Shown one piece after another: positions 8,129 through 28,599 of a DNA stretch of 64,000 nucleotides. Under the pieces are notes generated by a model. It was not told the DNA's origin and did not search any database. It saw only the letters and a program-made list of their open reading frames with translations. How positions within the stretch are numbered: position 1 is the stretch's first letter; each line of letters starts with the position of its first letter. Made by a program: the position numbers and the translations under genes. This DNA comes from Escherichia phage ph0011, in sequence record OP557969.1. One strand, 5' to 3'.

Positions 8129-8136
8129 TATAAATA
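8129..8136 (+). promoter_or_regulatory. T4-type late promoter motif TATAAATA
   Basis: exact TATAAATA about 30 nt upstream of the 8168 start. Confidence 0.55.
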
Positions 8137-10877: not shown

Positions 10878-11468
10878 ATGTCTTATAAATTTAGAGCAGA
10901 TGTGGAAGCTTATGCTTCCGTTAAATCACAAGGAAAAAATACTGGGACCACGATAACTGTTCGTTCTGGTAATGTGTATCAAGCTGATGCAAATGGGAAT
11001 ATTGATATACCAGTCATGAGTACAGATGATGTGAATTACATTACCAGTTCGTTTCCGTTATCACAATTTGGACCACTTTACAGTGATGAACCATTAGGTA
11101 TTACTTCTGCGGGTTTCAATTTAACTTTCAGCAAAGAATTACCGTTATTCATGGCGGGAGCGGCGTATACCCTCCCAGCAAAAACAATAACAGATCCTGG
11201 TGTTTCTGGTACTAATATTGAAACACATTATGTATATGTTATATTAGATGTTGGGGTAGCTGACTACCTCATTTCTAAAACTCAACGACCTGAAAGTAGT
11301 GTTAATATGTACATCGGAAAACTAACAGTTTTCCCAGATGGCATTACAGGGGTCAGTATAAATAAAGTGTCAAGATTTGACAACTTCAGAGTAAGTTCTA
11401 CAAAAATTGGTTCAGCTATCCCTATCAGTTCTGGTTCACCAGATGTGAATGGTATGATAGAATGGTAA
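10878..11468 (+). CDS. small protein carrying the fibre C-terminal module
   Basis: C-terminal ~90 aa (YIGKLTV ... VSRFDNF ... GSAIPISSGSP) aligns with C-termini of both flanking ~900-aa proteins. Confidence 0.5.
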   Translation: MSYKFRADVEAYASVKSQGKNTGTTITVRSGNVYQADANGNIDIPVMSTDDVNYITSSFPLSQFGPLYSDEPLGITSAGFNLTFSKELPLFMAGAAYTLPAKTITDPGVSGTNIETHYVYVILDVGVADYLISKTQRPESSVNMYIGKLTVFPDGITGVSINKVSRFDNFRVSSTKIGSAIPISSGSPDVNGMIEW

Positions 11469-14224: not shown

Positions 14225-14255
14225 AAAGCTCGTCTATTGACGGGCTTTTCTTTTG
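14225..14255 (+). terminator. intrinsic terminator
   Basis: aaagctcgtc/gacgggcttt hairpin (one G-U pair) followed by T-rich run. Confidence 0.6.
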
Positions 14256-14288
14256 TGTGTATAATACAAAGAAATATAGGAGGAAATT

Positions 14289-14855
14289 ATGGTCAAATCA
14301 TTACTACCACCACCAAAACGACATAAAATTAAAGAAATGAAAGAACAACGTACATTAAAGATGTACAACAATTTAGTTAATTTACTTTGCAAAAGTCCAT
14401 CACTCAAAGAAATATTCACCACAGATGATGATCGTAATGCACTTATTGAGATGAAGTATATGCTCAGTAAAATGTCCTTTTACAAATTTGTCAAAGAATA
14501 CTCAACTGAACCATTCAGTCCTCGTTGGCGAGTCAAACCAAGAGAGTATTTTTTCGGTGGTTCATATACTGATATCATTCAAGATACGGTGATAGGCGTA
14601 GAGTTCGAGATTGATTATGAGCCTAATGGTGTGGAAAACTGGCAGATTGACAAACATTTACCAAGTGAAGATGAAATTTATGTTTATGCAAGAAAACAGT
14701 CAACTTTCAGTTCAAAAATTGCTCTTAATAATTTAGATTCATTTATTATTTTCTATACATTTGTCGGTGTAGATAAAATGGCAACTAAACTCAATGAATT
14801 ATCATTGCAACAAAAACAGATTAATGCATACAAAGACATTACAGATTTATACTAA
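14289..14855 (+). CDS. hypothetical protein, paralogue family member 1
   Basis: AGGAGG SD; shares motif TTDDDRNALIEMKYMLSK with next two genes. Confidence 0.55.
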   Translation: MVKSLLPPPKRHKIKEMKEQRTLKMYNNLVNLLCKSPSLKEIFTTDDDRNALIEMKYMLSKMSFYKFVKEYSTEPFSPRWRVKPREYFFGGSYTDIIQDTVIGVEFEIDYEPNGVENWQIDKHLPSEDEIYVYARKQSTFSSKIALNNLDSFIIFYTFVGVDKMATKLNELSLQQKQINAYKDITDLY

Positions 14856-14867
14856 TGAGGATTGGAT

Positions 14868-15383
14868 ATGTTTTTTGGACAGTTTAAAAAACCTGACAGT
14901 ACTTTAATTTGGCATGAAATCATCTTTAAAATTATATCTAAAAGCTACTCACTAAAAGATATTATCAAAACAGATCATGATCGACGTGTTCTGTTAGAAG
15001 CAAAATATAAATTGAGCAAACACCCGTTACTTTCTTTAATCATTGATTACGTTAATGATTATGAATCCAGTCGTTGGAAGTGGGAAGACGGAGGTTTATT
15101 TCGTGGAAAAACATTCTACGGTGCAGAACGATATGTATTCAGTGATACAGCAAATGGTGTTAAGTTTGCTATTAGAAACTTTAACTCCAAAGAAAATGAT
15201 TATCTTGAAAGTGGAGTTAAGGTGTATATAGATAATAATAACAATGTACTTACATATGACGAATCACTAATTATGTTACAAATAATGCGTGGAGTTGAAA
15301 GTGTAAGACACAATCTTACTAAGTTGAAAATCCAGCAAAATGATATACATAATAGACAGAAAATTAAGGGTTTATATAAATGA
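14868..15383 (+). CDS. hypothetical protein, paralogue family member 2
   Basis: GAGGA-7nt-ATG; motif KTDHDRRVLLEAKYKLSK. Confidence 0.5.
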   Translation: MFFGQFKKPDSTLIWHEIIFKIISKSYSLKDIIKTDHDRRVLLEAKYKLSKHPLLSLIIDYVNDYESSRWKWEDGGLFRGKTFYGAERYVFSDTANGVKFAIRNFNSKENDYLESGVKVYIDNNNNVLTYDESLIMLQIMRGVESVRHNLTKLKIQQNDIHNRQKIKGLYK

Positions 15384-15889
15384 TTTCATTTTTCAAAAAG
15401 AAAGAAAAAGTTGATGAAACTGGATTAGAATCGTTTCTATGGACTCTTATCATTAAAAAAAGTCCATTAATGAAAGAATATGCTATCAATGATGCTAATA
15501 GAAAAACTATCATTGAATACAAATACGAATTATCAAAATGTGATCCAATAGTTTATCACTTTGCGAAGTACTGTTCTAAAAATTTATCGGATATCACGAT
15601 TGAACACGAGTCAGTACCAATGAGTTTTCCTTATGGTGATTGGGTAAATACTTTTGATATTTTCGATGGGTCTAATGGATTCCGTTTCTTTTACTCGTCA
15701 AATAAAGCAAATGTTCGTATTAAAACTGAGATAGGTTGGGCACAGCATAGCACAAATAAAGAAGATTATAATTTACTAGCTGACGTATACCGAAGTGTGA
15801 AGAATTCAAAGGATATTGATGAAAGAATTAAAAAGCAAAATCGTATTTCTTTATCACTTGAAACATACAAGTCAAAGTATGGTGGTTAA
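15380..15889 (+). CDS. hypothetical protein, paralogue family member 3
   Basis: ATGA overlap; motif INDANRKTIIEYKYELSK. Confidence 0.5.
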   Translation: MISFFKKKEKVDETGLESFLWTLIIKKSPLMKEYAINDANRKTIIEYKYELSKCDPIVYHFAKYCSKNLSDITIEHESVPMSFPYGDWVNTFDIFDGSNGFRFFYSSNKANVRIKTEIGWAQHSTNKEDYNLLADVYRSVKNSKDIDERIKKQNRISLSLETYKSKYGG

Positions 15890-15891
15890 CT

Positions 15892-16293
15892 ATGACTACA
15901 GTTGATGATATCTATAGTACTATACGCAATATGAGCACAGATAGAAAAGTATTTGGTGATAAAGAAAAATCTAAGTGTTATGGTATTGATTCTTTTGATA
16001 TAATTTCGTATGAGTACAATACGAATGGAAATAGTTCACTGAATATTGTCTGCCCTCGTGACCCAGAAAATAATTTTATGTATGTTGAAATTAATAATGA
16101 TGGAATGTTTTTTACAAAAGTTTTTAAAGGTGGAATTAATTACGAAACAATTGAATGTATGAATGAAGAAACTTTCTTTCAAGAAGATACAATTATCAAT
16201 TTAGGTTTTAGTTTTGATGATTATAAAACATTAGAACATGACTTTAATCGTTATTATAACGGTTTCTTAAAGGAGTTAACAATTTATCTATGA
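15892..16293 (+). CDS. hypothetical protein
   Basis: ORF track; tight spacing. Confidence 0.45.
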   Translation: MTTVDDIYSTIRNMSTDRKVFGDKEKSKCYGIDSFDIISYEYNTNGNSSLNIVCPRDPENNFMYVEINNDGMFFTKVFKGGINYETIECMNEETFFQEDTIINLGFSFDDYKTLEHDFNRYYNGFLKELTIYL

Positions 16294-17522
16294 ATAACCA
16301 ATATGTTGAACAAACAATAGTGAAACACTTGGCTGGGTCACAAGCCTACGGAACCAGTACACCTGAAAGTGATACTGATTATCGTGGTATTTTTCTTGCT
16401 AATAAAGAATTTATTCTTACGCCATTCTATAAGGTTAAAGAAGTAGCTGATAAAAATGAAGAAGATACCAAATTCTATGAGTTAAATCAGTATTTAAAAT
16501 TATACACTGATGCTAACCCTAATATTCTGGAATCACTATGGGTTGAACCAGAACACATTGTAGAAAGTACTGAGATTTATGACTATCTTCGTTCATTTAA
16601 CCAAAAACTTCTTAGTTCCAAGATTGCATTTTCATACACTGGATATGCATATAATCAAATTAAACGTATGACAAATCACCACGGTTGGATGGATAAAGAG
16701 CGTATTGCTGAAAAACGTTTAAATGAGATTTTAGAAGAACACCCAGTCGATGAGGTTCTTGTGTGGATGTATGATTCATTCCCACAATATCTTGTTGACC
16801 GTTTAGATACATCCAAATTACATCCATTTAATGCTAAAAAGATTGATTTTGAAAAATACATGCGTGATACGTCATTGCAGTTAGTTTCGAAAAATCCATT
16901 AAAGCAATATCATTTTGTAAGATTAGTGCATAACTACACTACTGATAAAATTCTAGATCGTGATTTCAATTTATTGAATTTTAACAATGGGTATGAACTA
17001 ATTCATTACGGAGAAAACATTTTTGCGATTATTAAAAATCCAAATGAAAGTACAATCAACGGTGATGGTTCATTGCGACATTTTTCAAAAGAGCGTAGTA
17101 CTGAAGAGTTGAAAACCAAACCAGAACTAATTGTCAAATTTAACGAAAAAGAATATCAGGAAAATAGTGAGAATAGAAAAAGTTATCATAAATGGAAAGA
17201 AAATCGTAATGCCAAACGTGCTATTTTAGAATCACTACACGGCTATGATTGCAAAAGTGCAATGCATACCATTAGACTATTGAATAGTGCAGAAGATGCA
17301 TTACAAAGTGGGATTATTCAAGTTAAACGCCCAGATGCACAGATGTTGATGGATATTCGTAATGGTAAATGGAAGTATGAAGAAGTTTTAGAATATTTCG
17401 ATGATAAAGTAAAATATATCCGTGATGTTCTATATAAGAAATCAGAACTTCCAAAAAAACCAGATATTAAATTAGCATCGAAAATTATCATTGATATCCG
17501 AGAGATGCAATGGTATAAGTAA
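16290..17522 (+). CDS. Pol-beta superfamily nucleotidyltransferase
   Basis: N-terminal hAGSQAYGTSTPESDTDYRGIF = G[SG]x9-13DhD nucleotidyltransferase signature; ATGA overlap. Confidence 0.6.
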   Translation: MNNQYVEQTIVKHLAGSQAYGTSTPESDTDYRGIFLANKEFILTPFYKVKEVADKNEEDTKFYELNQYLKLYTDANPNILESLWVEPEHIVESTEIYDYLRSFNQKLLSSKIAFSYTGYAYNQIKRMTNHHGWMDKERIAEKRLNEILEEHPVDEVLVWMYDSFPQYLVDRLDTSKLHPFNAKKIDFEKYMRDTSLQLVSKNPLKQYHFVRLVHNYTTDKILDRDFNLLNFNNGYELIHYGENIFAIIKNPNESTINGDGSLRHFSKERSTEELKTKPELIVKFNEKEYQENSENRKSYHKWKENRNAKRAILESLHGYDCKSAMHTIRLLNSAEDALQSGIIQVKRPDAQMLMDIRNGKWKYEEVLEYFDDKVKYIRDVLYKKSELPKKPDIKLASKIIIDIREMQWYK

Positions 17523-17616
17523 TATATGGGTGTAATAGTTATAAAAAATTCCATTACACACCAAATCACTTCAGTGATTTATATCTTGACATTGAAAAAA
17601 ATAATTATGTATAGTT

Positions 17617-17647
17617 AGAGAACTTCATATGGAGTTCTCTTTTTTTA
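17617..17647 (+). terminator. intrinsic terminator
   Basis: 10-bp stem agagaacttc/ggagttctct, 4-nt loop, 7 T. Confidence 0.75.
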
Positions 17648-17660
17648 TAAGGGTGATTAA

Positions 17661-18062
17661 ATGTTAAATGAACGTATTAAAAATGCACTATATGTATTGA
17701 ACCAAGAAGTTAATTCTATTAATAAAAGTACTGAGCGATATAAAGTATTACATGAAATTAGACAAGAATTGGAATCTATTAATAAGGGAAAATGGGTTCT
17801 TGAACGCGAACGAACTATTGTTGAAAAAGCAATTGCAAAATTCATCTCTGAACGTTATGGTAAAATTTCAGAGGAAGATGTACTAATGAACTTACATCTT
17901 TCACAAACGGAAGTGATGGAGAAATTTCATTTTGATTCATTAGACTGGTTGGAAATGATCATGGAATTGGAAGAAGAATTCAATGTAGAAGTAGATTTAT
18001 ATTATGAAAAACAAGAAACCAAACTATATGAACTAGCAGAACATATTAAACTAATGATGTAA
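17661..18062 (+). CDS. acyl-carrier-protein-like protein with N-terminal extension
   Basis: C-terminal FDSLDWLEMIMELEEEFNVEV matches ACP phosphopantetheine-attachment region (DSLD ... ALEEEF). Confidence 0.55.
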   Translation: MLNERIKNALYVLNQEVNSINKSTERYKVLHEIRQELESINKGKWVLERERTIVEKAIAKFISERYGKISEEDVLMNLHLSQTEVMEKFHFDSLDWLEMIMELEEEFNVEVDLYYEKQETKLYELAEHIKLMM

Positions 18063-18115
18063 ACATATACCATTATATACTCTAAATAATATCATCAACT
18101 ACAGGAGATGATATT

Positions 18116-18490
18116 ATGAGTGTACTAGAAATTATTGTTTCAAAAATTTTAATTCCATATTGGAAGCCGATTTCTTTTGCGTTATTACTCGGTGGTGCGG
18201 CATTATCAGGTTGGAAAGCTAATACTTATTATACTGGTTATCAGCAAAGTATCGAGCAACAAATAGCCAAACAGGTTGATGTCGCACTTGATAAAATGCA
18301 ACAGGAAAATGCAAAAAATTACATTGAAACAAAAAAAATCATGGAAGATAATGCTAAAGTTATTGAAACGAAAGTTCCTTATATAGTAGAACGCAAAGTT
18401 TATAAGAATGTGTGTTTAGATGAAGATGGCGTGAAAATTCTAAATGATCTAAAACAAAATTCACAAGCAATGAGGAATAAGTTAAAATGA
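18116..18490 (+). CDS. putative i-spanin (Rz-like)
   Basis: single N-terminal TM (ISFALLLGGAALSGW) followed by charged coiled-coil-like region; followed by overlapping lipoprotein gene. Confidence 0.5.
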   Translation: MSVLEIIVSKILIPYWKPISFALLLGGAALSGWKANTYYTGYQQSIEQQIAKQVDVALDKMQQENAKNYIETKKIMEDNAKVIETKVPYIVERKVYKNVCLDEDGVKILNDLKQNSQAMRNKLK

Positions 18491-18795
18491 AAAAAATATT
18501 AGTCCCAATGATTTCTTTTTTAATTATAAGTGGTTGTGCTGAACAAGCAAAACTACAATCACCTGCACCTATTAAACAAGAAATTCTATTAGAAAGATGT
18601 GATGATGATACACCTCTGCCACAAAAAATCATGATTGACAATAATGGTTTTAAAGGTTATGATGGTGCAGAAATTCTTAAAGTACTTACTCGTTGGGATG
18701 CAATCTATAATGAGTGTGCTTTAAAACATGATGCCTTGATTAAAACTATTCGCGATTTACAAGGCAAAGATATTAAAATTAATATCAAGGAATAA
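18487..18795 (+). CDS. putative o-spanin (Rz1-like lipoprotein)
   Basis: signal peptide with lipobox IISGC; start overlaps i-spanin stop. Confidence 0.5.
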   Translation: MKKILVPMISFLIISGCAEQAKLQSPAPIKQEILLERCDDDTPLPQKIMIDNNGFKGYDGAEILKVLTRWDAIYNECALKHDALIKTIRDLQGKDIKINIKE

Positions 18796-20224: not shown

Positions 20225-20259
20225 TGGGACAATAATTGAACCTGTGATATAATGTATAT

Positions 20260-20782
20260 TGTAAAATGACAACGGACATTGTAAAAAATGGACACTGAAA
20301 ACCTAATTCACTTGAAAATGTAAAGGATAGATGAGCTTTACCGTTGTAGCGAACAGCAGAAGAAACCCGTTAGAGTACTGGCATTCAAACAAACACGATG
20401 TAAGACCACGAATCACGGCGACACGGCTGTATAAAGAACTCCGATAAGCATACAGAGAGTTCCTAGATAGATGTATAAGGTTCGCACCTTACCAGATTTG
20501 CTAAGGGAGTTTAAGAATGGCGAACGCAATTTTTACAAGAAAGTTGCGTCCAAAATTTGAGAACAAGTACTACTTTGATCGAATAGAGTTAGTACTGAGT
20601 GCTGTTGATGAAAAGACCAGCGACCGTTGCATATGACTGCGATAGAGAGAAACCGAGCAACCCGCTTTCGCTCTCTAAATCTTTGGTACGAGAAAGATCC
20701 GTCCAAAATTTGAGAAATTCGCAATTCGATAATATCCGATGCCATCAGCGTCAAGAAGAGACTTAATTGTCTCTTTTTTATT
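20260..20782 (+). ncRNA. candidate structured non-coding RNA region (no + strand ORF, GC-richer than flanks)
   Basis: about 600 nt without + strand ORF of 60 codons or more in an otherwise gene-dense array; TGaTATAAT -10-like element at 20245-20253; nested stems (gttcgc/gcgaac, cctta/taagg, agagag/ctctct); 17-nt direct repeat cgtccaaaatttgagaa at 20547 and 20700; ends at terminator 20755..20782. Confidence 0.3.
20755..20782 (+). terminator. intrinsic terminator
   Basis: aagagac/gtctctt stem, loop ttaatt, T-run. Confidence 0.65.
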
Positions 20783-20919
20783 ACTTTCATTCCCCTGTGG
20801 GGGATGAAATAGTCCTCAACAAATCCCGTCAAGTTATTAAAATACATTATCATTATTCAGAAGTAACAAGTTTACGAAGTAAACGAAGTGACTTCTTGGG
20901 TTGCGAGAGAACGAAGTGA

Positions 20920-27153: not shown

Positions 27154-27270
27154 ACTTAAACATTTGAAAAGAACGTTTTTGTACTGTAGAAAGTCCGATG
27201 AGGCTTTTGCAAAATGGCCTCTTTGCCATCTTTGTGATTGCCCATCTTAACAATCAACAAAGGAGGCGTT

Positions 27271-28197
27271 TTGAAACAAGCGAAAAAAGCACTGAAAACT
27301 AAAATTGCCGTAGGCGTATTAGTTTCATCAGCCCTATTCGCTGCTATTGGATTTTATGGTTTTTCACGACATGATCATGCACCATCATTAGACGAAAGTC
27401 AGGTGCATAATTTGAAACCACAGTTGACTCAAATTCAAAAGCAGGAACTACCACAGGTATCAGTACCGAAAACAGTTCCAAGCAGCGAGAAACATTATAC
27501 GGTTCAACCTGGTGATAGTTATTATTCTATTGCTAAAAAGTTTAAACCTAAAAATGTACAACTTGAAGAGTATGTTATTTTGTTGAAAAATATCAATTTA
27601 AATGCTACACTTCATACTTCTCAGGGTATCTTTATCCCAACAAAAGAGGATTTGAAGAACATATTATTACCAGATGTGACTGTTCTGTTTGATTACACTG
27701 ATCCAGAAATTATCAATCACATTAAAGAAGCTGAAGGTTCAATAGAATACCAGTCCAAGAATAAACGACGTTTACTGGGTGGTCAGGTTGGTGTTTCATA
27801 TCGTAATTCTAAATTTTATCCATACCGTGATGTAAAAGGTAACTATACGATTGGGTACGGTCACTACCTTGGTAAGAATGCTTCTGATGCAAGTAAGTAC
27901 CGTAACGGAATTACCAAATCACAAGCACATAAACTTTTATTGGATGACATGGAACGAATTAATAATGATTTAATTTTATTATTGAAGAAGCGAAATGCGA
28001 CAAACCTTACGGTCGAACAACAACGAATTTTATTTGAGATGGCATTTACTCTAGGAGTTGACAAGTTAAACACTTTCAATAAACTATGGAAAAGCGTTGA
28101 AAATCAAAATTACAACAAGTTCAAAAAAGAAATTAAGAATTCTCTATGGTATCGTCAAGTAGGAAACCGTGCAGAATTGTTGTTAAGCTCACTCTAA
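27271..28197 (+). CDS. peptidoglycan hydrolase: N-terminal signal-anchor/TM + LysM + T4-lysozyme-family (GH24) domain; likely TTG start
   Basis: AGGAGG 4 nt before TTG 27271 (ORF track uses TTG 27238); Gly/Ala-rich TM IAVGVLVSSALFAAIGFYGF; LysM YTVQPGDSYYSIAKKF; lysozyme motifs NYTIGYGHYLG and SLWYRQVGNRAELL. Confidence 0.8.
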   Translation: MKQAKKALKTKIAVGVLVSSALFAAIGFYGFSRHDHAPSLDESQVHNLKPQLTQIQKQELPQVSVPKTVPSSEKHYTVQPGDSYYSIAKKFKPKNVQLEEYVILLKNINLNATLHTSQGIFIPTKEDLKNILLPDVTVLFDYTDPEIINHIKEAEGSIEYQSKNKRRLLGGQVGVSYRNSKFYPYRDVKGNYTIGYGHYLGKNASDASKYRNGITKSQAHKLLLDDMERINNDLILLLKKRNATNLTVEQQRILFEMAFTLGVDKLNTFNKLWKSVENQNYNKFKKEIKNSLWYRQVGNRAELLLSSL

Positions 28198-28213: not shown

Positions 28214-28546
28214 ATGCTAAATCTAAACATTCAAGGCAACATTGATATCACTCCAGCAATCCAAGATGCTATTTACAATGAAGCAAAAAGTCTGGATAAG
28301 TACCGTACTTCTTCAGTACTAGACATTGGTGTTCATGTTAAGAAAGAGCATAAAACTCAATATGCTGTAACTTTAACTGCTGGTAGTAAATCAGTGACTG
28401 CTGATGATGCTGATTTGTATAAAGCAATTGTTGAATCTTTTGATAAGATGGAAACTGTATTCAGTAAAGACAAAAGCATTAAATTGCACCGCCGAAACCA
28501 CCCAGAACATCCAGTTCTTGATGATTTGACAGAAAACGAAGAGTAA
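28214..28546 (+). CDS. hpf: ribosome hibernation promoting factor / RaiA (YfiA)-like protein
   Basis: MLNLNIQGNIDITPAIQDAIYNEAKSLDKY ... LYKAIVESFDKMETVF follows the HPF/YfiA pattern (MQLNITG.N.EIT.AL ... LEQY ... MYAAIDGLIDKL) as recalled. Confidence 0.65.
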   Translation: MLNLNIQGNIDITPAIQDAIYNEAKSLDKYRTSSVLDIGVHVKKEHKTQYAVTLTAGSKSVTADDADLYKAIVESFDKMETVFSKDKSIKLHRRNHPEHPVLDDLTENEE

Positions 28547-28556
28547 TATATACTAA

Positions 28557-28586
28557 AGGGACAGAATTAATCTGTCCCTTTTCTTA
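28557..28586 (+). terminator. intrinsic terminator
   Basis: agggacag/ctgtccct 8-bp stem, 7-nt loop, T-rich tail. Confidence 0.7.
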
Positions 28587-28599
28587 TGGAGTTTTAATT

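Follow-up and report, generated by a model that had tools for sequence, protein, structure and literature searches.

The gene analyzed here, in Escherichia phage ph0011, encodes a protein with a predicted acyl carrier protein (ACP) fold, and it belongs to a family in which the serine expected to hold the cofactor is freely replaced. Because this replacement has happened repeatedly in genes whose remaining sequence is under purifying selection, the product would be a cofactor-independent binding module. In the reading that we prefer, to which a probability of about 0.5 was assigned, it is an ACP-fold protein that works without cofactor and uses its acidic helix II to dock on a partner. The DNA studied was a 64,000-nt stretch of the phage genome (OP557969.1), referred to below as the window. 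An ACP had been proposed in the initial annotation of this DNA; the fold and the presence of the serine in this allele were upheld, but the serine proved not to be conserved among orthologues, and no accompanying carrier genes were found in the window.

The gene, its product and its relatives

The open reading frame has a start codon and a ribosome-binding site of its own, as had been described (Table 1). The N-terminal part of the protein is indeed charged, with 8 acidic and 9 basic residues among the first 50 (pI 8.1), and the last 83 residues are acidic (pI 4.55). No signal peptide or membrane segment was detected in the protein. Between the two N-terminal helices lies a family-conserved turn, S-T-(D/E)-R-Y (aa 23-27), which in the form S/T-x-(D/E)-R-Y is nearly invariant over the family representatives. 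No homologue of this N-terminal extension was found outside the ACP-like family.

The C-terminal domain was predicted to adopt the four-helix carrier-protein fold, with helices I, II, III and IV at aa 53-66, 93-107, 114-117 and 122-132, respectively, and an extended loop carrying two short helices between helices I and II. The AF2 model reached a pTM of 0.63, with a pLDDT below 50 at linker residues 45-47; both the structure prediction and the family profile were built on a shallow alignment of nine sequences. The segment FDSLDWLEMIMELEEEFNVEV, quoted in the initial annotation as an ACP signature, corresponds to aa 91-111. The serine of its D-S-L-D does occupy the expected site, since Ser93 (codon TCA, 17937-17939) is the first residue of helix II and pairs in the alignment with AcpP Ser36 of E. 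coli.

From sequence alone the ACP signal is weak. The PP-binding model of Pfam (PF00550), which had been suggested as a check, did match the protein, but with 20.8 bits it stood exactly at the gathering cut-off of 20.8, and the aligned part covered 23 residues only (aa 91-113); 9 of the 17 family members were matched by this model at E<=0.01. The NCBIfam ACP models (TIGR00517 and NF002148-51) gave 23-29 bits against cut-offs of 66-106, below the AcpP equivalog threshold, and the two phage 'ACP' PHROGs were matched weakly. The only strong family match was to PHROG 18343, of unknown function (E 6.5e-40, aa 2-132 on profile positions 1-137 of 138).

In a phmmer search of the PDB sequences, E. 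coli AcpP ranked first (E 3e-4, aa 53-113). It was also the best match among solved structures (PDB 1T8K, 1L0I, 6N3P), with the same four-helix fold and about 31% identity over 60-80 residues, and the fold-search matches included ACPs as structural subunits and several AcpP-client complexes. AcpP and the phage protein share the acidic pattern of helix II, D-S-L-D-x-x-E...M...E-E-x-F...E. Unlike AcpP, the phage protein has a 50-aa N-terminal hairpin, a loop I about six residues longer, a Trp at +3 and no Gly before the motif, the Gly usual three residues before the Ser being replaced (EKFHFDS versus DLGADS of AcpP). It also differs in a serine that varies among orthologues, in a score of 28 versus 70 bits at the equivalog cut-off and in having no FAS context. 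The ACP domain is most like enterobacterial AcpP, and its descent from a captured host acpP is a conjecture.

The window was assigned to an Asteriusvirus jumbo phage of the 121Q/PBECO4 group. The closest record is that of Escherichia phage UE-S1 (92% nucleotide identity over 3.5 kb), whose orthologue differs from the window protein at 1 residue (99.2% identity); slurp01, 121Q, PBECO4 and other Asteriusvirus jumbo phages (~350 kb) show 77-90% DNA identity to the region. The context had been called T4-like, and T4-type nucleotide-metabolism genes are present in the window (NrdD/NrdG, thymidine kinase, thymidylate synthase, dCMP deaminase and dNMP kinase), but a strictly T4-like context it is not.

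Table 1. Features of the ACP-like locus, in window coordinates.
Feature	Position	Strand	Basis
RlaP-family nucleotidyltransferase (PF10127), 410 aa; accompanies the ACP-like gene in most relatives	16290..17522	+	Pfam
Sigma-70-type promoter-like site, TTGACA-N18-TATAGT, directly 5' of the hairpin	17586..17615	+	Sequence, conservation
Intrinsic terminator: 10-bp stem (17617-17640), 4-nt loop, T7 run	17617..17646	+	Folding
Ribosome-binding site AGGGTG, 5 nt before the ATG	17650..17655	+	Read from sequence
CDS of the ACP-like protein, 133 aa, member of PHROG 18343	17661..18062	+	ATG start, TAA stop
N-terminal extension, aa 1-41; helices 2-19 and 25-41	17661..17783	+	Structure prediction, family alignment
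ACP four-helix domain, aa 53-133	17817..18059	+	Structure prediction, fold search
D92-S93-L94-D95-W96, start of helix II	17934..17948	+	Alignment
Conserved spacer motif ACTCTAAATAATATCATCAAC between ACP-like gene and i-spanin	18078..18098	+	Sequence, conservation
Rz-like i-spanin (PHROG 1152), neighbour	18116..18490	+	PHROG match
o-spanin lipoprotein (PHROG 2425, lipobox IISGC); 4-nt overlap with the i-spanin gene	18487..18795	+	PHROG match, lipobox

The attachment serine and the selection acting on the gene

The serine had been taken for an attachment site, and its absence from homologues had been named as refuting the proposal; W, N, T, R, E, D or K was in fact found in its place among them. 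In the translated orthologous genes, Ser is present at the site in the window phage, UE-S1 and A4, Trp in 121Q, slurp01, TH47, vB_Ec-M-J, phAPEC6, Sharanji and fEgEco12, and Asn in JNE01 and Turkey5. FDSLDW and FDWLDW forms were both recovered among the cluster representatives of a 5.8-billion-protein search. An exhaustive profile search of 1.84 billion representatives yielded about a dozen clusters (at 50% identity) with the N-terminal extension, with R, E, S, T (RaK2), D, D, S, K and S at the site. Over 17 representatives of the family the count was S8 W2 D2 N1 R1 E1 T1 K1, whereas the ordinary ACPs pulled in by the same profile, which served as a control, keep the Ser in 19/19 cases, as DS[LI]D. 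The neighbouring residues of helix II were conserved over the same 17 representatives: D92 and D95 in all of them, E98 as 15 E and 2 D, E104 in 16, and M101, F107 and E110 in 15 each.

In an NJ tree, built without support values, the sequences with the motif D-x-x-D-W were monophyletic (Asteriusviruses, RaK2 and five metagenomic clusters), and at least seven changes at the site were counted within this clade. W96 is invariant across the subfamily, and Ser occurs in 3/12 of its representatives. The sister clade comprises CBB, XbC2, fHe-Yen9-04, P0018 and P0022.

The genes lacking the serine are under purifying selection, with no decay. The dN/dS ratio (Nei-Gojobori) was 0.15-0.4 for all pairs, dS being saturated for the most distant ones, and comparisons between Trp-bearing genes gave 0.18 (vB_Ec-M-J vs 121Q), 0.20 (121Q vs TH47) and 0.27 (vB_Ec-M-J vs TH47). 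The same architecture was predicted for the Trp variant, with helix II beginning at the Trp (pLDDT 82.7). All metagenomic relatives and 35/35 phage records carrying the gene preserve its length and frame.

The gene nevertheless evolves 2-3x faster (dN) than its neighbours, with a dN/dS of 0.2-0.4 vs 0.05-0.31 (mostly 0.07-0.18) for the two spanins and the HNH gene. Between the window and JNE01, protein identity was 37% for the ACP-like product and 55-63% for the neighbours, and across genera the upstream nucleotidyltransferase is 56-76% identical and the ACP-like protein 21-28%. In the comparison with slurp01, the DNA of the ACP domain showed 70-72% identity and the flanks about 90-95%. The allele histories of the ACP-like gene and the spanins have, on this sequence evidence, been uncoupled by recombination: UE-S1 has an ACP domain identical to that of the window and spanins only 84-92% identical, and in slurp01 the spanins are 85-95% identical and the ACP domain 60%.

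A search for partner acyltransferase or ligase genes, recommended in the initial annotation, returned none among the 84 other ORFs of at least 60 aa in the window, which is part of a genome with about 290 kb lying outside it. No ACPS, AMP-binding, ketoacyl-synthase, acyltransferase, condensation or thioesterase domain was detected in these ORFs by Pfam scans; the families that were found belong to nucleotide metabolism, RNA repair, tail, lysozyme, HPF and similar categories. A phage-encoded PPTase was also considered and rejected. In tblastn searches of 50,697 phage records (E<=10) with E. coli AcpS and B. subtilis Sfp, a method less sensitive than HMMs, none was found in RaK2-like phages and the matches were confined to unrelated phages. 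The host AcpS could substitute for a phage enzyme.

Since the serine is exchanged freely in genes that purifying selection maintains, and no genes of a carrier pathway were found nearby, the conserved function of the D-x-x-D-W subfamily cannot, as judged from the alignments, be covalent carriage, and the 4'-phosphopantetheine arm would be unused by it. A carrier role may exist in some lineages, because the Ser is retained in the window phage, in about 40% of the subfamily sequences and in the sister clade (5/5).

Gene order and transcription signals at the locus

The ACP-like family is restricted to RaK2-like jumbo phages, and a locus search of IMG/VR with the Asteriusvirus alignment returned only 121Q itself. 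The genes of Mimasvirus and Eneladusvirus that are labelled 'acyl carrier protein' (CBB_163, GAP32, XbC2_157, fHe-Yen9-04 g153 and pEa_SNUABM_12 gp158) are true homologues, which share the hairpin with its S/T-x-(D/E)-R-Y turn, the length and the position before the spanin pair. They differ in the constant Ser, in having no Trp at +3, in a terminator before the spanins and in an identity to the window protein of 21-25%. The short phage ACPs (PHROG 5934/4154; Kuttervirus ViI, Achromobacter phage Motura and Caulobacter phiCbK-like phages) also have a phage ACP fold and gave weak HMM and fold matches, but they are about 80-105 aa long, have no N-terminal hairpin, and belong to other PHROGs and other genomic contexts.

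The common order is an RlaP-type nucleotidyltransferase with small ORFs, the ACP-like gene, an i-spanin-sized gene and an o-spanin-sized gene, as seen in Asteriusvirus, RaK2, Mimasvirus CBB/XbC2, Eneladusvirus fHe-Yen9-04 and three metagenomic contigs. The last three of these genes keep their succession in four genera (Asterius-, Alcyoneus-, Mimas- and Eneladusvirus) as well as on three metagenomic contigs. In Asteriusvirus and the metagenomic contigs, the spanins are succeeded by an HNH gene and a DUF7325 gene. In 121Q, A4, JNE01 and Turkey5 there is no nucleotidyltransferase block upstream, and a tail-fibre gene abuts the locus instead. A lysozyme gene lies about 9 kb from the ACP-like gene (ORF 27238-28197, the counterpart by synteny of the vB_Ec-M-J lysozyme). 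The upstream 410-aa enzyme was also examined as a CitX-like holo-ACP synthase, and this candidate was discarded: it is of the RlaP family and does not lie beside the ACP-like gene in every phage, and a dispensable serine leaves the idea without foundation.

The strong terminator noted upstream of the gene was confirmed by folding, with -12.9 kcal/mol, z = -3.7 and 0/200 shuffles as stable, and it would stop read-through from the genes upstream. The promoter-like site that precedes it is close to consensus and recurs as TTGACA-N17/18-TATAAT in UE-S1, slurp01 and 121Q; A4 and JNE01 have near matches, and the promoter-then-hairpin arrangement is kept in Asteriusviruses whatever the upstream gene. 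A transcript starting ~7 nt past the -10 hexamer was computed to lose most of the 5' arm of the hairpin. Because it retains a stem of only -2.6 instead of -12.9 kcal/mol, the element could block upstream read-through and yet launch the mRNA of the ACP-like gene.

A separate signal may serve the spanins. In the window, TCTAAATA within the spacer is one mismatch from the T4 late-promoter consensus TATAAATA, and the Asteriusvirus spacer 5' of the i-spanin gene carries a conserved TCTAAATAAT, likewise one mismatch from the T4 late motif; the spacer motif is a possible spanin promoter. The consensus TATAAATA itself occurs 3x in the window vs 11 expected, always on the + strand. Two of these sites lie just 5' of likely structural genes, at 8129 (a tail-fibre-sized ORF) and 21355 (a Dps-like gene), and the third, at 11357, is inside an ORF, with the next tail-fibre-sized gene starting ~120 nt further on. 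Both CBB and fHe-Yen9-04 have a terminator hairpin and a promoter-like motif between the ACP-like gene and the spanins. Taken together, the transcription signals argue that the adjacency to the spanins is positional.

Proposed role and competing explanations

Docking through helix II, decoy action, early expression and the identity of the target are what we infer in the following scheme. The protein would be cytoplasmic and composed of two parts, a helical hairpin of ~45 aa and an ACP-fold domain of 80 aa. The acidic face of helix II (D92, D95, E98, E104 and E110, equivalent to AcpP D35, D38, E41, E47 and E53) would be the surface that docks onto a partner's basic ACP-binding patch, and the conserved N-terminal hairpin would provide a second interface. 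In AcpP, helix II is the 'recognition helix' that docks on the basic patches of its clients (AcpS-ACP, FabZ-, FabA- and LpxD-AcpP complexes), and docking is favoured because the residues fixed in the phage family are the acidic face and the core of this helix. The conservation of the D35, D38 and E41 equivalents is no proof of docking, since the same residues also stabilise the helix II N-cap. A host enzyme that normally binds AcpP would be the most likely class of partner, and the protein would then possibly be an apo-ACP-like decoy, permanently 'apo' and made from an early host-type promoter. The serine of the window phage would be a retained ancestral residue; its modification by the host AcpS would be optional, and the function independent of it.

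Two precedents make docking and decoy action plausible. The mACP of Plasmodium falciparum lacks the Ppant group and is essential through its binding of Isd11-Nfs1 (Falekun et al. 2021, PMC8547962). As in that protein, an ACP fold is kept under selection with the attachment serine replaced, which holds for the phage family, the window allele still having Ser. The Plasmodium protein differs in being eukaryotic and organellar, in having a known LYR-protein partner, in a loss that is fixed rather than a polymorphic site and in having no such N-terminal hairpin, and the two proteins show no sequence relationship beyond the fold. On the bacterial side, apo-ACP strongly inhibits the E. coli glycerol-3-phosphate acyltransferase and growth (Keating, Carey and Cronan 1995, in the review PMC3896788), which is a mechanistic precedent for a decoy, an ACP without prosthetic group inhibiting an ACP-client enzyme. 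That case differs in that it concerned the artificial over-expression of the host's own protein, and binding of PlsB or another client by the phage protein is an analogy.

A more specific extension, that RaK2-like phages produce an early-expressed, permanently 'apo' AcpP mimic that blocks or redirects ACP-dependent host metabolism, is speculative, and we hold it to be rather improbable. Its candidate clients would be PlsB, LpxA/LpxD, FAS enzymes, AcpS, IscS and MukB, with lipid and envelope metabolism or another ACP-dependent hub as the target, and the rapid divergence of the protein would be an adaptation to its host targets. A host-directed early protein is consistent with the host-type promoter and the raised evolutionary rate. 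Against a decoy, four genera carry the gene as part of their syntenic core, a pattern less typical of genes for decoys or host takeover, and the protein has been detected at low level in Eneladusvirus virions.

The preferred cofactor-free docking module was weighed against four other explanations. That Ser-bearing alleles, the window's included, encode a genuine carrier is unlikely. The host AcpS would load S93, and the acyl or aminoacyl group would serve an enzyme of the host or an unrecognised one of the phage; in the same unlikely scenario, alleles with Trp, Asn or another residue would be derived forms with the role lost or changed. The place of S93 in helix II speaks for it, as do the acidic residues at the positions that AcpS-type enzymes contact in ACP (D35, D38 and E41 equivalents; AcpS-ACP complexes, e.g. 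PDB 1F80), a PP-binding score that reaches the cut-off, and the sister subfamily with its unbroken Ser and PP-binding E as good as 9.9e-10. The same-genus, same-locus orthologues with W or N, maintained by purifying selection, weigh on the other side, together with the number of replacements in the subfamily, the replaced Gly, the low scores with the NCBIfam ACP and DltC models, and the failure to find a PPTase or acyl-handling enzyme in the window or a PPTase in related phages. At the opposite extreme, the gene might be what is left of a captured host acpP, decaying and without present function, as the high dN relative to the neighbours and the loss of the catalytic serine would allow; given the low dN/dS, the intact frames and the conservation of the N-terminal motif and helix II over four genera, this is very improbable.

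The position of the gene also invites readings in terms of lysis or of the virion, both of which appear quite unlikely. A lysis accessory factor would act with the downstream spanin pair, for instance in spanin maturation or timing control, and the order ACP-like gene, i-spanin, o-spanin kept so widely is in its favour. It has to contend with the transcription signals that intervene in CBB, fHe-Yen9-04 and (as TCTAAATA) the Asteriusviruses, with the uncoupled ACP-like and spanin alleles of UE-S1 and slurp01, and with a protein devoid of export or membrane-anchoring segments. Lipoprotein acylation, moreover, uses phospholipid donors via Lgt and Lnt and not acyl-ACP. One genome paper on Eneladusvirus did remark on the adjacency, speculating on a link to the lipoprotein spanin, and it reported the orthologue by LC-MS/MS in three virion preparations (PMC7760394), which bears on the second reading, that of a virion-associated or assembly protein using the ACP fold as a small structural subunit. 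The values 4, 3, 5 and 8, 8, 15 in its supplementary Table S5 were read as peptide counts and % coverage (PMC7760394). Such counts are low, and small abundant acidic proteins are frequent contaminants; the ACP of a Vi01-like phage was retrieved only once. ACP is bound as a subunit in the solved structures of respiratory complex I, MmpL5-AcpM and EmbA-EmbB-AcpM, such structural ACPs were among the fold matches, and the gene adjoins tail-fibre genes; but it is preceded by a host-type promoter and not by the TATAAATA late motif of the structural genes at 8129 and 21355, and its rate of evolution exceeds that of its neighbours.

The gene itself is already known, as a member of PHROG 18343 and under an ACP label in some deposited genomes, and no functional study of it was found in the literature searched. 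What appears to be new in that literature is the dispensability of the serine in the Asterius/Alcyoneus subfamily, the conserved N-terminal hairpin of the family and the finding that a carrier annotation is untenable for most orthologues. If the AcpP decoy were true, it would represent a new phage takeover route over bacterial lipid and envelope metabolism, a natural protein inhibitor of an ACP-client enzyme and, among viral proteins, the first decoy of an acyl carrier protein to be described; if the protein were structural or accessory, it would be a modest instance of fold re-use. The family is compact and experimentally tractable, an ACP fold freed from its cofactor, with natural Ser, Trp, Asn, Asp, Lys and Glu variants as ready-made mutants.

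The analysis also corrects a spreading annotation, as at least four GenBank jumbo-phage genomes mislabel Trp-bearing orthologues. The four records that name the gene 'acyl carrier protein', 'acpP' or 'D-alanyl carrier protein 1' all have FDWLDW. A D-alanyl carrier (DltC) identity was rejected for the window protein, which scored 16.9 bits against a cut-off of 68 with NF003464, and Pfam scans found no Dlt genes in the window. Since Trp occupies the attachment site, the Trp-bearing orthologues cannot be carriers, and to judge from this residue the 'acyl carrier protein' labels on them are functionally wrong. The orthologue of fEgEco12, annotated as a D-alanyl carrier protein, has FDWLDW as its own motif.

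Gene order and sequence mosaicism around the ACP-like gene

The gene encoding the ACP-like protein (17661-18062, plus strand) is preceded in the window by a tail-fibre gene and then by a five-gene block (see table). The three tandem paralogues of this block encode proteins of 188, 173 and 169 aa, belonging to PHROGs 18641 and 7868, and its 133-aa ORF belongs to PHROG 22376. The order tail-fibre gene, five-gene block, ACP-like gene is common to the window and phages UE-S1, slurp01 and vB_Ec-M-J. The block is absent from the position between the tail-fibre and ACP-like genes in 121Q, A4, JNE01 and Turkey5. In RaK2, CBB and fHe-Yen9-04, the nucleotidyltransferase leads and is followed by the small ORFs.

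Comparison with slurp01 and UE-S1 placed a mosaic boundary at 17750-18100, within and directly past the ACP-like gene. Identity to slurp01 falls from approximately 90-95% to 70-72% across the ACP-domain codons, and identity to UE-S1 is 98-99% within the gene and 80-89% from 18100 onwards. This pattern indicates that allele types of the genus have recombined with one another.

Features located in the window, with coordinates and strand where assigned
Feature	Position	Strand	Description
TATAAATA	8129	+	Just 5' of a tail-fibre-sized ORF, likely a structural gene
TATAAATA	11357	+	Within an ORF; next tail-fibre-sized gene ~120 nt downstream
TATAAATA	21355	+	Just 5' of a Dps-like gene, likely a structural gene
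Sigma-70-like promoter + intrinsic-terminator hairpin	14225-14265		
Sigma-70-like promoter + intrinsic-terminator hairpin	17586-17646		
Sigma-70-like promoter + intrinsic-terminator hairpin	28526-28590		
Five-gene block	14289-17522		Three tandem paralogues, 133-aa ORF, RlaP-family nucleotidyltransferase
Ribosome hibernation factor homologue	within 19-64000		PF02482
CCA-adding or poly(A) polymerase-type enzyme	within 19-64000		PF01743/PF12627
2H phosphoesterase	within 19-64000		Pfam
NUDIX hydrolase	within 19-64000		Pfam
Bactofilin-domain protein	within 19-64000		Pfam
DUF2201 VWA/metallopeptidase protein	within 19-64000		Pfam

Transcription signals

At three sites of the window the same layout was observed, in which an intrinsic-terminator hairpin overlaps, or directly trails, a strong sigma-70-like promoter. 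If the transcript started within the 5' arm of the hairpin, transcription arriving from upstream would be terminated and new transcripts would pass. The copy at 17586 is kept across Asteriusviruses, whichever gene lies upstream.

The T4 late-promoter octamer, TATAAATA, is under-represented in the window: against an expected 11 copies there are 3, each of them on the plus strand. The related motif CTAAATAAT occurs four times (18082, 32751, 34513 and 52751), each copy a short way 5' of a gene start; conservation of the one preceding the i-spanin gene reaches RaK2.

A conserved stretch at 20225-20919

This stretch of approximately 700 nt has no consistent plus-strand ORF; its sole ORF, of 106 aa on the minus strand, is annotated differently among relatives. 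Its nucleotide identity is 92.5% to vB_Ec-M-J and 84% to JNE01, whereas that of the flanking coding DNA is about 72-80%, the surrounding genes thus being less conserved. Its GC content is 39% (34% in the window), its predicted fold has a z of -3.1, and it contains a direct repeat, CGTCCAAAATTTGAGAA, in two copies. Searches of the stretch found no tRNA and no Rfam match, even at E<=1. The stretch is put forward as a conserved element of Asteriusviruses, a candidate non-coding RNA or regulatory region.

Other gene families and the closest viral structure

The families listed for 19-64000 were assigned at the Pfam level, rather than ORF by ORF. Together with RlaP, these domain assignments suggest a gene set for RNA repair and translation maintenance.

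The top viral structure match to the ACP-like protein was BFVD A0A2Z5HFQ2, a protein of 432 aa from outside the window, with 63% identity over 137 aligned columns. This entry probably represents an ORF of a relative that was fused or called wrongly. The relative may be phage CMSTMSU, in whose record there are two matching places.
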